64,000 bases of DNA, taken from a virus. The position numbers and the translations under genes were made by a program. The notes under the pieces were generated by a model that did not search any database, was not told the origin of the DNA, and saw only the letters and a program-made list of their open reading frames with translations. Location of the stretch: positions 1 through 64,000 of IMG/VR virus record IMGVR_UViG_3300029957_000008. One strand, written 5' to 3'. This document shows positions 5,918 through 28,582 of the stretch, piece after piece. The first letter of the stretch is position 1, and every line of letters begins with the position of its first letter.

Positions 5918-6133
5918 TTACTCCTTGACGTCGACGTCGAATAACCCAGACTCAATAAGTGTGATCATCTCGTGCGCCATATCAAATTCAAATTTAGCCA
6001 CTTCCATATCGATAGGATTTTTTGATTTCTTACTTGCGAGGAGATCTTCGCTTCCAAGCTCGGCGGCTTCCCTCCAAAAGGCCAGCATGAACTCCTTGTC
6101 AATCTGCTTCTTTACTTCCGTCTTTGTTTCCAT
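5918..6133 (-). CDS. small protein, tandem paralog 1
   Basis: QIDKEFMLAFW...ESGLFDVD. Confidence 0.65.
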   Translation of the reverse strand: METKTEVKKQIDKEFMLAFWREAAELGSEDLLASKKSKNPIDMEVAKFEFDMAHEMITLIESGLFDVDVKE

Positions 6134-8444
6134 CTTTAGTCTCTTCCTTTGTGTTTAATGGTTCTCTAATTACCTTCAGTTCCCTAACTGCAAAATCGGT
6201 TCTACCCGAACTCTTGTTAATGATCATCGCTACGATGCTGCCCGCCTCAACCCTCTTTAGCTCCCCCGGCAACGATCCATCTCTACCCGGCCAGTAAACC
6301 ATCTCCTTTTTAATGCCGTCCACCTCGACAAAGAACTTGCAAGCCTCTTTCTCCTTGCCCGGCCCATAGTTAAAGTACTTCTTGCGCTTGTCGCTGTCCC
6401 ACGGCTCTACATATGCAATTATACCACAACGGTAGTTCTTTTCAACAAATCCTTCACTGGTTTCTAATTCTTCTAGTCGTTTCCCACCCACCACCGGGTC
6501 AAAGGTGGATTCCTCCTTGCCGCTGTCATAGGAATAAGCCCGGTACTTGAACCTAAGAGCCCTACCTTCTACTACTAAATACTCGGGCAAGCCTATCTGC
6601 ATTACTAATGGCCGAAGGTCCGCCCCAAAGGGCGGGAGAACGGCCTTTTTAGCTTGGTATCGCCCCAAGGCATCCAATGAGGGCAACTTCTTACTAGGCT
6701 TGGCATACTTAACGCCCTCAAGGGCGTGCAGTTCCTTCATCGTCGCATGGTACTCTTCAATGCACGCCGAAAGAGTCTTGTCAGGCCCAAAGAAAGCCTC
6801 CATCGACCCAGCATAAAGCATGTTGTGGATCTTGCCAATATCTAGGGCGCTACGCCCCCAAGCAGTAACTTTTTTGGTAGTGCCGTCTTCTTCAGTTTTA
6901 GTCTTTTCTACTAGATTGGACTTCCTGTGATTAATAATGGCTTGACAGAATGACTTTAAGTCGGCATACGGCGCTGAATGCGCAAGCTGATTGTGCGCCG
7001 CTTCGCCCATGCCAAACAACATGGAAATGGGCGCACGGATTTTGTCACCTTCAATCTCCCAGTCACCCTTGGACAACTTGATGTCAGGGAGAAGAACTAG
7101 GTTACCACAGTACTTCCAGAAGCGTGTGTCAATCTCCTCTTTGGTGGCTGAGCGGAGGACCGCACACCACCATTCTAGAGGGTAGTAGTGCTTGAGCCAC
7201 AGGCAGGCGTAGGAGAGGGTAACATACGAGACCGCGTGGCTCTTGTTGAAGGAATATTTTGCAAAGGTGATAATTGAGTCCCACACAGCTTGTGCGGACT
7301 CCTTACCGACCTTAGACGTTGCTCTTTCAATGAAGAAAGTGTACGCCTTTTCCATCGCGGCCAGCTTTTTCTTGCCCGCGTTGCCTCGGAACTCCTCTGC
7401 TTCGGCAAGAGTGCATCCTGTCAGCTCCTGATACACCCTCATTAGAGACTCTTGGTAGATCATCAACCCCTTGGTCTCAGGGCAGAGGGCGTCCATCTCT
7501 TTGATGATGTCTGGACTGGGAGCTAGTCCTTTGGCCCGTCGGGAGTACTCGACGAGGACGCTGTGCTTCTGTGTTGGGCTATCAAAATTAGTAACTAGGT
7601 AGTCTAGTGGGCCGGGGCGGTCCAAAGCTGTAAAGATGGCCATGTCACTAATACTGTTGATAATTCCATTGAAGTACTTTAGACACTGCCTGGCCGAATT
7701 CGAGTCGAACTGGAAGACCGTTTCGACCTTACCACTACAAAGGTCGGCGAACACCTCAGGTTCTTGAGGGAGATCCCAAATGTCGTGAAGGGCTCCTTCC
7801 TTACCCGGAACAATCCTAAGTCCTGGAACCAGCGACCCATTGAGCTTCTGATCCTGTGGTTTACCGCCAAGATGGCGGCTTTGGATAATCTTGATGGCTA
7901 TTTGAACATCCTTGACGGCATTTACGGTCAGGAAGTCCATCTTAATGGCCCCAACGCTCTCACATTCAGGGCCAGTAAAGGAGAGAGCTTTTACACCTCC
8001 GACCTGGGTCGTTGGAATGAATTCATCTATGGGTTCGTTACTAATCACATATCCGGCCGCATGACGGCCGCGACTGCGCCACAAGGAAAGGGAGTCTTTA
8101 ACTACCTCCCACTGCTTGGGGTACTTGTAGATGTATTCCTGGAGATTCTTGTCAATCTCGATACTGCCAGGGACTTCGCCTTCAGGAGATGTGTAACCCA
8201 TGATGAACCGCTCATCACTGAGTCCTTGAGGGGGGACGAGAAAGCCCTTGCACATCCTTTCAATATCGGGCGGGACACTACCCATTACGGCTCTAGCTAC
8301 GTCGCGTACGGCGTTTTTGAGCCGTAGGGTGTTGATGGTACCGATCTGAGCGAAGTGGTCGGGGAAGCGATTCTGAAGCCAACCCTCCCAGTGGGGCTTG
8401 AGTGTTCCGGTCTTGGAGTTGTTTGTGATTTCGGTGAATTTCAT
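6099..8444 (-). CDS. dnaE: DNA polymerase III alpha (DnaE), C-terminal half
   Basis: AQIGT, GRHAAG, KMDFL, TVFQF, RPGP, IYQE, YSFNKSH, WLKHYYP. Confidence 0.92.
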   Translation of the reverse strand: MKFTEITNNSKTGTLKPHWEGWLQNRFPDHFAQIGTINTLRLKNAVRDVARAVMGSVPPDIERMCKGFLVPPQGLSDERFIMGYTSPEGEVPGSIEIDKNLQEYIYKYPKQWEVVKDSLSLWRSRGRHAAGYVISNEPIDEFIPTTQVGGVKALSFTGPECESVGAIKMDFLTVNAVKDVQIAIKIIQSRHLGGKPQDQKLNGSLVPGLRIVPGKEGALHDIWDLPQEPEVFADLCSGKVETVFQFDSNSARQCLKYFNGIINSISDMAIFTALDRPGPLDYLVTNFDSPTQKHSVLVEYSRRAKGLAPSPDIIKEMDALCPETKGLMIYQESLMRVYQELTGCTLAEAEEFRGNAGKKKLAAMEKAYTFFIERATSKVGKESAQAVWDSIITFAKYSFNKSHAVSYVTLSYACLWLKHYYPLEWWCAVLRSATKEEIDTRFWKYCGNLVLLPDIKLSKGDWEIEGDKIRAPISMLFGMGEAAHNQLAHSAPYADLKSFCQAIINHRKSNLVEKTKTEEDGTTKKVTAWGRSALDIGKIHNMLYAGSMEAFFGPDKTLSACIEEYHATMKELHALEGVKYAKPSKKLPSLDALGRYQAKKAVLPPFGADLRPLVMQIGLPEYLVVEGRALRFKYRAYSYDSGKEESTFDPVVGGKRLEELETSEGFVEKNYRCGIIAYVEPWDSDKRKKYFNYGPGKEKEACKFFVEVDGIKKEMVYWPGRDGSLPGELKRVEAGSIVAMIINKSSGRTDFAVRELKVIREPLNTKEETKDGNKDGSKEAD

Positions 8445-8445
8445 C

Positions 8446-10209
8446 CTACCACCACGCCTTAAAGTCGGCCTGCTTAGCTATCGCGTCCTTGACTGGCATA
8501 ATCCCTTGGTCTGTTTCAATTTTGAAGTCTTCAGGGAGCACATGAAGAGTCCCATCCTCGCCTTTCACCTCAATCACGTTTGTATCGTATCCCACTAGCA
8601 GGTCTCTGTGTGGAAAATCTAAATCGACGTCTGGCAGGTGGTTGGATTCAATACGGGTTTTGGTCAAAAACCTCTCAAAGGACAGGTTTTCCTTAATTGG
8701 GTCCAAGTGCGTAATTCCTAAAAGATAAGAAAGAAGGCAACCGGCTGCGCTGCCCCTGGCCACATTCATCAACTGATCTTGGTTTTGGTATAGATTGCAA
8801 ACTTCATAGGCTAAATGAAAATAAGGCAAGAGATCAATTGTCCCGTTCCGGTGAATGGTGTCGATTTCTTTCTTGAGCCTTGCCAGATAAACCGGGTCGT
8901 TCTTCATTCGCCCATGTTTGTTGATCAGTTCTTTGGTGTAGGCCAAGGAGTCCTTTGGAAAGAACTTTGTCGGTAGCTGCGGGGTGTTTTCGAACGTAAA
9001 GCCCTTGAACCCCTCCAACCAGGCGTAGGAGTTGTCTACCCAGCCCTCAAACTCCTTCTCCGAGGTGTTGTGAACTTTCTTGAAATGGGCGTAGGCCTCA
9101 TCGCCCGAAAAACGGTGATAGGAATTGTAGAAACGCCAGTCGCCCATCTGAGCTAGACGAACGTCTTGAACGGCCTTGTACTTAGCGTCAGAAAAATGAC
9201 TGTCGTCGCTCACTAGAATCGGCACATTGTACTTCTGAGCAAGGCCCATAACAAACACGTTAGCGCCGTATTGCAAATCCCCTCCGGGTGCCCACGGCGC
9301 ACATTCGTTCTGAATGAATCCTTCTACTTTCTTGACTGCCAGAATCTTCAAAGGCTTCTCAAAGTCCGTCCACACTCTGTAATTGCAAACAGACACTAGA
9401 AACTTGTGCTTGTTAGGGTCGTACTTGTCCGCTAGCGCTTCGGCCGTTGACGTGCCGGCGTCGGTCCTAATGGTCTTGTCAAAGTAATACCGAATGGTCT
9501 CCTTTGTTCCGTCGTCCTTCTCAACATCAATGAATACGCCCTTGGTGAAGTTATGGCTGCAGACATGTGGAAATACCTCAACAAAAAAACGATCTTTGAA
9601 CAAGCAATGGAGTCGCTCAAAATACGCCGTGGCAATGCCGACCTTTATGTTCTTGGGTACTTCAGGATTAAGAAGGTGTCTGGACACCATCCCGATGACG
9701 CACCCAGAACCAATTGTTACATTGTGCGCGGCCAACTCTTCAATCTCATCCCATCCCCAAATCGGCTTGCGCTCAGAACCATGTTGTTCTGCCCTTGCGT
9801 CAGCTTTTGAAAGCAATCGAACGCCTACCTTATACGCCTTAAAATCACGAAACCCAATAGTAGCATGAAGGTACTTCAAGTGTTCCACAAAGCTACCGTC
9901 TGGATGGTCTTTGGCCCATTTTTCAGCATCAGATCCGCGAGGAACCGTTTTGGTTTTCTGGATGCCGAACCTAGTAAGGATGGGGCAGTCGTCACTTCTC
10001 ACGTACGCCTCAATTCCAATCACGGGCGTCAGGCTATTCTTCTTAGCCAACTCATAAGTCTTATACGCCGCAGACAAAGACCCGTGGTCGGTACAAGTCA
10101 GAGCCCCTGTCCCTAGTTCAACTTCCTTCTTAGCAAAGGCTTCGGGTGTGGATGCCGAGTCCAGACTTTGGGGGTGGCAATGTGGGGTCGTAAAGTTTCC
10201 GTAAGACAT
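8446..10209 (-). CDS. dnaE: DNA polymerase III alpha (DnaE), N-terminal half (PHP domain and palm start)
   Basis: HCH..SLDS, TDHG, GIEAY, DDSH, ARGSAAGCLLSYLLGIT, FERFL, PDVDLDF. Confidence 0.92.
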   Translation of the reverse strand: MSYGNFTTPHCHPQSLDSASTPEAFAKKEVELGTGALTCTDHGSLSAAYKTYELAKKNSLTPVIGIEAYVRSDDCPILTRFGIQKTKTVPRGSDAEKWAKDHPDGSFVEHLKYLHATIGFRDFKAYKVGVRLLSKADARAEQHGSERKPIWGWDEIEELAAHNVTIGSGCVIGMVSRHLLNPEVPKNIKVGIATAYFERLHCLFKDRFFVEVFPHVCSHNFTKGVFIDVEKDDGTKETIRYYFDKTIRTDAGTSTAEALADKYDPNKHKFLVSVCNYRVWTDFEKPLKILAVKKVEGFIQNECAPWAPGGDLQYGANVFVMGLAQKYNVPILVSDDSHFSDAKYKAVQDVRLAQMGDWRFYNSYHRFSGDEAYAHFKKVHNTSEKEFEGWVDNSYAWLEGFKGFTFENTPQLPTKFFPKDSLAYTKELINKHGRMKNDPVYLARLKKEIDTIHRNGTIDLLPYFHLAYEVCNLYQNQDQLMNVARGSAAGCLLSYLLGITHLDPIKENLSFERFLTKTRIESNHLPDVDLDFPHRDLLVGYDTNVIEVKGEDGTLHVLPEDFKIETDQGIMPVKDAIAKQADFKAWW

Positions 10210-27678: not shown

Positions 27679-27954
27679 CTAAGAGTAATTCTTTCTACCC
27701 GCATTTGGGTCCGAGTTTGCAATCCGCTCATGCATCATGTCCTCAATGTCTGCAAAGCGCTCTACCGCCTTGGGCATGGCCCCGTTATCCAAGACTTCCT
27801 TAATCGACGTACTAGGCCCCGAACCGTCCCGAATAAGCTCGGTGCCACACTTACAAGTCTTCTGTGCTGGTGGAACGGTATCGAAAGAGGAACTTGTTGT
27901 CAAGAACCTCTTCCGAGTACCGCAGTTAGGGCAGTGAGTGTTGTAAAGGGGCAT
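27679..27954 (-). CDS. FmdB-like zinc-ribbon protein
   Basis: MPLYNTHCPNCG...CKCG. Confidence 0.7.
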   Translation of the reverse strand: MPLYNTHCPNCGTRKRFLTTSSSFDTVPPAQKTCKCGTELIRDGSGPSTSIKEVLDNGAMPKAVERFADIEDMMHERIANSDPNAGRKNYS

Positions 27955-27955
27955 C

Positions 27956-28582
27956 CTACCGAACAAACATCGTGATTAGTGCAGCGGTCTCAAGGAGTGC
28001 AAGCAAGCTGACAATGACCAGAGCCAGGTTCTTCTTGATTGCCGACTCAACCACCACAGCTTCTTCCTTCATGTCCACTTCAATAGCCTTGACCTCGGCA
28101 ACAACATTTTCAGGAAGCTTGCGGACTACGGCAACCACCTTATTGATTTCCGTCGTGGTCTTATCCATCCAAGAAGCAAGTTCTTCCTGAACCCGCTTAC
28201 GTTCATTGTTGACTGACGTCTCAAGCTCGGTCAGAACACCTGCAGCCTTAGTCTTGGCGGAATCAAGATTCTTCTGCGCCGTATTGACTTCCTCGACTAC
28301 GGCGCTAGCTGCCTTGGTAAGGTCTTCAACCGAAGTCTTAACAACGGCCTTGGCCTCAGTAACCGTGGCGGTTTCAACTTTGGCTGATACGGCCTCTGCA
28401 GTCTTGACTTCGGTTACAACAGCTTGGGTTGCTCCCGTCGTGACACTCTCCACCGTAGTCACAACTGGTGCAACTGCGGCTTCTGCACTTTTAACCTCGG
28501 TAACAACCACATTTCCCGCCGTTACGGCGGCGTTTTCAACCTGTACTGCAACATTTCCTACGCTTGTATCAACTTCGCTCAT
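27956..28582 (-). CDS. A/V/T/E-rich helical protein with C-terminal TM anchor
   Basis: repeated VVTEVK.AEA; hydrophobic tail. Confidence 0.65.
   Translation of the reverse strand: MSEVDTSVGNVAVQVENAAVTAGNVVVTEVKSAEAAVAPVVTTVESVTTGATQAVVTEVKTAEAVSAKVETATVTEAKAVVKTSVEDLTKAASAVVEEVNTAQKNLDSAKTKAAGVLTELETSVNNERKRVQEELASWMDKTTTEINKVVAVVRKLPENVVAEVKAIEVDMKEEAVVVESAIKKNLALVIVSLLALLETAALITMFVR

Follow-up and report, generated by a model that had tools for sequence, protein, structure and literature searches.

The first 64 kb of a 92-kb viral contig in IMG/VR (record IMGVR_UViG_3300029957_000008; estimated completeness 56%), hereafter the window, encode the polymerase DnaE of an uncultured phage in two adjacent genes, and the break between them falls inside an insert of about 64 residues. 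The insert consists of an acidic tail at the end of the N-terminal half and a basic head at the start of the C-terminal half. Its origin from a split intein and its loss of splicing are both well supported. From sequence comparison and fold modelling, we further consider it probable that tail and head now dock the two polymerase halves to one another non-covalently.

A polymerase gene divided within the palm

Both genes and all of the following features lie on the minus strand of the window:

8446..10209, minus strand: dnaE N-half gene, 587 amino acids plus TAG, encoding the PHP domain and the initial portion of the palm, which bears two of the catalytic aspartates
8614..8634, minus strand: PDVDLDF, catalytic strand that bears the first and second aspartates (N-half residues 526-532)
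8449..8580, minus strand: acidic tail of 44 amino acids (N-half residues 544-587), corresponding to residues ~53-100 of a split N-intein (block B/N3 and N4)
8524..8538, minus strand: LPEDF within the tail, in place of TxxH
8442..8448, minus strand: junction TAG-G-ATG (N-half stop 8448-8446, spacer G 8445, C-half start ATG 8444-8442)
6099..8444, minus strand: dnaE C-half gene, 781 amino acids, encoding the remaining palm with the third aspartate, the fingers and HhH
8385..8444, minus strand: basic head of the C-half, 20 amino acids, corresponding to a split C-intein's first strand
7929..7943, minus strand: KMDFL with the third catalytic aspartate (C-half residues 168-172)
7236..7259, minus strand: KYSFNKSH, uninterrupted (C-half residues 396-403)

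Taken across both genes, the features of DnaE, the C-family alpha subunit, are all present (PF02811, PF07733, PF17657 and PF14579), as are three catalytic aspartates and a match to solved DnaE structures (E 1e-17), in which PDIDIDF is the counterpart of PDVDLDF. An initial annotation of the window, made from the sequence alone, had proposed that the break lies in the palm and that the catalytic aspartates are distributed over two polypeptides. This is borne out by the open reading frames (ORFs), by the location of PDVDLDF and KMDFL on different chains and by the Pfam palm model PF07733 (DNA_pol3_alpha), of which positions 14-111 are matched in the N-half gene, together with PHP, and positions 126-259 in the C-half gene. 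The same annotation correctly described the classical cyanobacterial intein site, KYSFNKSH, as uninterrupted. Myxococcus phage Mx1, the closest named relative, encodes DnaE as one continuous protein of 1289 amino acids lacking the insert. The N-half is 47% identical to residues 1-543 of Mx1 DnaE and the C-half is 37.5% identical to Mx1 DnaE, with the two matches directly adjoining one another (N-half residues 1-543 and C-half residues 21-768 match back to back). The surplus of the window over Mx1 amounts to ~64 residues (N-half 544-587 and C-half 1-20), with the stop and start codons in the middle of it.

The C-half frame is +1 relative to the N-half frame and is closed by a stop codon 10 codons upstream of its ATG. 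The junction is probably one of translational coupling. As had been noted previously, the heptamer TAG-G-ATG also occurs between two unrelated ORFs at 27952-27958 (minus strand), in the context GGTAGGATG, pointing to a termination-reinitiation junction that is common in this phage. No Rfam family matched anywhere in the window, and hence the dnaE junction harbors no known intron.

Intein homology of the tail and head

As single sequences, the tail and head of the window found nothing relevant in Pfam or the PDB. When a profile of 15 tails, with extein residues excluded, was compared with 177,635 PDB sequences, DnaE split inteins of the Npu/Ssp type took all of the top 8 places (E 3.2e-5 to 1.9e-4), and positions 1-40 of the tail aligned to DnaE intein residues ~56-97. 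Using hhalign, a profile of 79 tails matched 12 genuine split N-inteins of relatives with a probability of 97.6 and a P value of 2.9e-12, compared with 0.13 or worse for reversed or column-shuffled controls. An exhaustive hmmsearch of 1.84 billion representative proteins with the tail profile yielded 31 matches at E <= 1e-3; the 17 of these that were read were either members of this family, true split N-inteins retaining T.DH (E 8e-8, 1e-7 and weaker) or one of four proteins in which the insert is contained within a single ORF. The homology of the tail to the block-B half of DnaE-type split N-inteins, which had been suggested in the initial annotation together with a check for Hint similarity, is now well supported, and with it an origin from an intein. 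A profile of the head (20 positions) had no match in the PDB. Its assignment as the first C-intein strand is based upon its position, its resemblance to two real C-inteins of relatives and the fold alignment described below. Likeness to the Hint superfamily is found in both sequence and fold, with one of the two pseudo-symmetric lobes present.

The elements required for splicing are missing from both parts. None of the 79 tails is preceded by a block A with an N-terminal Cys or Ser nucleophile or by an N-terminal lobe of ~50 amino acids; the insert opens directly at the block-B strand, its first residue being D, E, P, A or N. In the alignment of the tail to the Npu DnaE intein, the block-B Thr faces Pro and the His faces Phe, in agreement with the annotated conversion of TxxH to PEDF, and the Thr and His do not occur together in any of the 79 tails (Pro in 60, Phe in 36). 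The heads, which range from 13 to 24 amino acids, contain no block F or G, no terminal Asn (HN) and no +1 Cys, Ser or Thr. The window head passes directly into the extein at GWL, in contrast to the real C-inteins of relatives, which are 36 amino acids long and end in HN|C. The previously reported absence of a Cys1 block A and of an HN/N-C/S junction in the C-half gene is thus accurate, with no Cys/Ser1 block preceding the tail and no HN-C/S/T following the 20-residue head. Since the element has lost Cys1 along with the rest of block A, the TxxH motif, both block F and block G, its terminal Asn and the +1 nucleophile, neither ligation nor excision is possible. Splicing by the window element can be excluded on these sequence grounds, its loss being well supported.

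In the course of aligning these sequences, MAFFT repeatedly placed the 20-residue heads upon the first hairpin of the tail (window 8385-8444 versus 8524-8580), with which they have a G-T, L-P and aromatic pattern in common. This likeness may be an echo of the internal symmetry of the Hint fold or simply due to chance.

Predicted fold of the insert

Two AlphaFold predictions were made for L008, a relative of the window phage. The first was of a 1200-residue TAG read-through and returned a predicted local distance difference test score (pLDDT) of 91.6 over the polymerase and 46-69 over the insert, the latter as a result of MAFFT having placed the tails and heads of relatives outside of the query's insert columns. 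Three further alignments, which placed heads on the tail or C-halves on N-halves, were discarded; anchor fragments solved the problem. The second prediction was of a 69-residue construct, tail-Q-head, using a corrected alignment of 21 rows that was restricted to tails and heads and contained no inteins. Its best model (pLDDT 85.4, predicted template-modelling score 0.70) has four strands and a helix contributed by the tail, to which the first nine residues of the head add a further strand (50-58). Its final 11 residues are uncertain, and scores for the remaining four models lay between 76 and 63.

When this model was submitted to Foldseek, the best ~29 PDB matches were all inteins, with a probability of 1.0 and template-modelling (TM) scores of 0.60-0.69. 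VIA-align superposed it on the Npu DnaE intein 4kl5 over 65 residues (Z 8.2, root-mean-square deviation 3.6 Å), such that model residues 1-65 correspond to intein residues 53-118, i.e., IntN 53-102 plus IntC 103-118. The end of the tail and the start of the head fall at Npu residues 102/103, with the head aligned to 103-118. In a scan of 48,161 chains performed independently of Foldseek, ranks 1-26 were all occupied by Hint proteins, led by the split inteins NrdJ-1 and gp41-1, and the first unrelated chain had a Z score of 3.3. Structure prediction of the halves, which had been suggested at the outset, was informative for the tail plus head and poor over the insert in the read-through. Judged by the model, the matched segment corresponds to the second of the pseudo-C2 units in the Hint fold and holds both the split site and the endonuclease site. 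In natural split inteins, association is initiated by a charge network located in this segment (bioRxiv 10.1101/546465; PMC2677866).

The split and the insert among relatives

A search covering 5.8 billion proteins returned ~90 N-halves of 560-630 amino acids with 45-84% identity. The same tail of ~44 residues ends at least 79 N-halves (protein clusters), while the same head starts 61 C-halves, where it occurs in two length classes of 20 and 14 amino acids and is followed by the polymerase sequence GWL. The first residue of every head is a Met read from a start codon, and the second is Lys, Arg or Gln. In IMG/VR, a search using a single protein as query found no close relatives, and one using an alignment as query found 61 loci. 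Their junctions take the form of an ATGA overlap, a 23-nt overlap, a TAG followed by an in-frame TTG, a 30-nt in-frame gap or a separation of 0.2-1.2 kb in which other ORFs lie. Given this diversity, both an assembly error and a conserved recoding signal can be ruled out. Furthermore, the exact C-half protein of the window occurs on three contigs, the longest being 163,717 bases, and the split has been conserved together with its tail in at least 79 clusters. The suggestion in the initial annotation that the split is no sequencing error is accordingly upheld. Continuous genes, which that annotation would have counted against a genuine split, do occur: Mx1 and 56 full-length relatives lack the insert, and about half of relatives are insert-free. 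Since these genes have no insert at all, they give no indication of a sequencing error.

In four relatives (P0081, P0251, P0253 and P0254), the tail, a short linker, the head and the rest of the polymerase constitute a single ORF. An initial word-based search for long proteins containing the tail had found none, a misleading result in view of these four, which were later recovered by the exhaustive profile search. By sequence, they are examples of a non-splicing half-Hint insert kept within a continuous polymerase, from which it follows that tail and head form one unit that is tolerated in the mature enzyme. Their in-frame linkers are 8-20 amino acids long.

On a tree of the N part comprising 82 sequences, split and insert-free forms interleave, with at least 14 changes by Fitch parsimony, and several sister pairs of split and continuous forms have support values of 0.94-1.0. 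In some of the continuous forms that adjoin split ones, the junction is shorter than usual, and these shortened junctions look like deletions of the insert. Single-ORF forms with the insert branch deep in the family tree, which is compatible with the later splitting of a resident dead mini-intein and also with the re-fusion of a split cassette. In three loci (L022, L024 and L037), an ORF of the endonuclease VII family lies between the halves (PF02945, E 1e-11 to 6e-8; PHROG, E 9e-14). The ORFs between the halves in L007 and L009 had no match in Pfam or PHROGs. No free-standing homing endonuclease gene is found between the halves in the window, where the spacer is a single nucleotide. Overall, the distribution fits a cassette that spreads or is easily lost.

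Genuine split N-inteins are also encoded by relatives, at two other sites of dnaE, GRHA|C and KYSFN|C. At the first of these, L021:3495-8483 and L031:3501-8427 have the full fractured-gene layout of an N-intein, an HNH gene and a 36-residue C-intein ending in HN|C. P0110, P0112, P0116, P0118, P0119 and P0122 belong to the same set, the N-inteins at this site being ~92-95 amino acids and the endonuclease gene HNH/endonuclease VII-like. At KYSFN|C, P0171 and P0181 (whose C-halves are 68-70% identical to that of the window) as well as P0100 and P0101 carry a genuine split N-intein with Cys1 and T.DH in addition to the dead palm remnant, which implies a DnaE in three pieces.

Probable function of the insert in docking the polymerase halves

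The model that we favor can be outlined as follows. A C-family replicative polymerase is encoded as two polypeptides, broken within an insert of ~64 residues that occupies a surface loop of the palm, right after the strand bearing the first two catalytic aspartates. The insert corresponds to the central lobe of a split intein of the DnaE type (Npu ~53-118), cut at the natural split and homing-endonuclease site, such that the N-half ends with the acidic C-terminal part of the N-intein and the C-half starts with the basic first strand of the C-intein. Following coupled translation, charge steering would bring tail and head together to complete one small beta-sheet domain, and this domain would hold the halves in register, uniting Asp527 and Asp529 of the N-half with Asp170 of the C-half in one active site. 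The mini-domain would presumably remain in the mature enzyme. Its source would have been a cassette of split intein plus endonuclease, i.e., a "fractured gene," with the endonuclease VII gene kept in some relatives and lost in the window.

Several observations are relevant to this model. The mean net charge is -5.6 for the tails (n=79) and +2.1 for the heads (n=61), the same acidic-basic polarity as in cyanobacterial DnaE and other natural split inteins (PMC2677866; bioRxiv 10.1101/546465). Pairwise identity averages 40% across the tails, 54% across complete N-halves and 35% across a structural insert of the PHP domain. Tail type tracks head length in 15/15 paired loci, with WW/FW tails paired with heads of 20-24 amino acids and other tails with heads of 13-14 amino acids, a co-variation that is confounded by phylogeny, as the two classes are two clades. 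Together, the conservation, the opposite charges, the strand contributed by the head in the AlphaFold model and the single-ORF forms favor docking, which may also be required for polymerase activity.

A number of points weigh against this interpretation. We know of no lone Hint lobe that is stable without its partner lobe. The occurrence of at least 14 gains or losses of the insert among 82 relatives indicates that the polymerase does not need the insert as such. The low confidence over the insert in the read-through prediction is a further point, and the better-scoring model was derived from a shallow, unpaired 21-row L008 alignment with the halves joined through the read-through residue, its pLDDT ranging from 85 to 63 over five models. 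In addition, AlphaFold has seen inteins, so that its fold match and the sequence match are not independent of one another. The native palm interface between the halves is large, and they might assemble without the tails. In the tested analogue, NrdA of phage Aeh1, the tails are dispensable for heterodimer formation and needed at a later assembly step (PMC3045599).

The initial annotation had described the element as a non-splicing, domesticated remnant acting as a clasp. Non-splicing is confirmed and the clasp has gained support, whereas "domesticated" may be too strong a term, since the endonuclease VII gene of relatives and the patchy distribution indicate that the insert behaves like the ends of a mobile cassette. 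Along these lines, the element could be first of all a selfish mobile cassette whose docking ends serve as an "antidote" upon invasion of an intact dnaE, with the window copy having no endonuclease. This falls just short of an even chance in our estimation, and it complements the docking explanation rather than excluding it. It is consistent with the endonuclease VII ORFs located exactly between the halves in three loci, with the interleaving of split and continuous forms and their well supported sister pairs, and with a second site of this gene family at which real split inteins and HNH genes are present. Conversely, the window junction has no endonuclease gene, recurrent loss could produce the same tree pattern, and the deep single-ORF forms also fit an old resident insert that was split later. 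We propose more tentatively that the arrangement of tail, stop, optional endonuclease, start and head may constitute a distinct class of mobile element, a homing cassette whose ends encode a self-assembling half-Hint docking domain. If so, non-covalent "splicing" would represent a third route, besides RNA splicing and protein splicing, for the harmless insertion of an endonuclease; the cassette class would be widespread in phage dnaE genes; and a single pseudo-symmetric Hint lobe would be able to fold and bind on its own.

It is unlikely that tail and head are a neutral scar, i.e., functionless leftovers of a cassette, with the halves assembling via the native palm interface alone. Such a scenario could account for the absence of the insert from Mx1 and about half of relatives, its repeated loss and the deletion-like shortened junctions of some continuous forms, and it has a precedent in the NrdA halves of Aeh1, which dimerise without their tails (PMC3045599). 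It is harder to reconcile with a tail identity of 40% versus 54% for the N-half, with invariant structural Gly, Asp and Thr positions, or with the maintenance of opposite charges throughout 79 tails and 61 heads; the phylogeny-confounded co-variation of tail type with head length points in the same direction. Far less probable still is a recoding event, in which a +1 frameshift or hop at TGG-TAG-G-ATG would yield a single-chain DnaE with an internal insert. The +1 frame of the C-half and the one-base spacer would permit this, and the natural single-ORF forms imply that a fused product would probably fold. Nevertheless, tRNA-Trp cannot re-pair in the +1 frame, the junctions of relatives are very different and share no conserved recoding signal, and all heads begin with a start codon read as Met and then Lys, Arg or Gln. 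Lastly, although the window is a single metagenomic contig, an assembly error, a pseudogene or a still active atypical split intein can each be practically dismissed, given the exact C-half on three contigs, the retention of the split in about 80 clusters, two intact ORFs with all polymerase motifs and the absence of the nucleophile, TxxH, blocks F/G and the +1 residue.

Comparison with known systems

The closest parallels are found among fractured genes, in which split inteins have a free-standing homing endonuclease gene between their halves and which include three metagenomic DnaE loci (Dassa et al. 2009, PMC2677866). In common with these, the window has a phage-type replication gene divided, between motifs N4 and C2, into two ORFs on the same strand, with Hint-derived, oppositely charged ends, and in relatives L022, L024 and L037 the halves flank an endonuclease gene. 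NrdJ-1 and gp41-1, which gave the best unbiased fold matches, are themselves inteins described in that study. However, fractured-gene inteins keep six splicing motifs and five catalytic residues and trans-splice (PMC2677866), whereas the window insert comprises the central ~64 residues, with no catalytic residue and no gene between the halves. Lacking any catalytic residue, its product must remain two chains.

A second parallel is phage Aeh1, in which the tails of NrdA-a and NrdA-b arose by insertion of mobE and are essential for activity (Crona et al. 2011, PMC3045599). Here too, an essential enzyme with a composite active site has been split by insertion of an endonuclease, its C- and N-terminal tails are unique, opposite in charge and missing from intact homologues, and neither RNA nor protein splicing is involved. 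Unlike those of the window, the Aeh1 tails have no detectable similarity to inteins, and their role has been tested biochemically (PMC3045599); for the DnaE insert, it is the intein origin that is demonstrable by sequence and fold and the function that we infer. Crona et al. had speculated that the Aeh1 tails might be a degenerate split intein, and the DnaE element now provides a case for such docking tails that is backed by both sequence and fold. The topoisomerase genes 39 and 60 of phage T4, which mobA splits (discussed in PMC3045599), are likewise an essential phage gene divided by a mobile endonuclease cassette, with tail-like extensions on the products. The T4 tails differ in having no Hint similarity, and T4 also has translational bypassing in gene 60.

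The cyanobacterial DnaE split intein (Ssp/Npu; PDB 1zd7, 4kl5 and 2keq) resides in the same host family and provides the closest PDB sequences to the tail. Its N part is acidic and its C part basic, and its residues 53-118 are those on which tail and head superpose. It differs from the window element in that it is located at KYSFN|C in the fingers, is encoded by unlinked genes and is fully active.

A full-text literature search found no description of a natural non-splicing split-intein remnant, with fractured genes and the Aeh1 NrdA tails being the closest cases. The element would exemplify a fate of inteins other than precise loss, namely the retention of a docking lobe at the split site with all of the chemistry discarded. 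Judging from the model, the Hint fold's second C2 unit may work autonomously as a binding module in two pieces. If so, a natural, cysteine-free and non-reactive heterodimerising pair of ~45 plus ~15 residues would be useful in protein engineering. There is also a consequence for annotation, as two-gene phage dnaE loci of this type would be working polymerases rather than pseudogenes.

Additional features of the dnaE genes

A beta-rich insert of ~79 amino acids in the PHP domain (window 9319-9555, minus strand; N-half residues 219-297) weakly resembles the tail, with hhalign P values of 2.5e-5 to the tail profile and 0.025 to real N-inteins. It was predicted with high confidence in the L008 model and is found in split and unsplit relatives alike, indicating that it is not linked to the DnaE split. 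Many C-halves of relatives contain a zinc-ribbon-like CxxC...CxxC insert ~45 residues past the head (L008:5271-7763 as well as P0142, P0155, P0156, P0164, P0166, P0167, P0193 and P0214), which is absent from the window C-half. A third type of dnaE split, just after the KMDFL strand, occurs in L055:3495-8242, P0096 and P0111 and has no Hint similarity. Its N piece ends and its C piece starts with charged, heptad-like helical stretches, which, from the sequence, are possibly a coiled-coil answer to the same problem.

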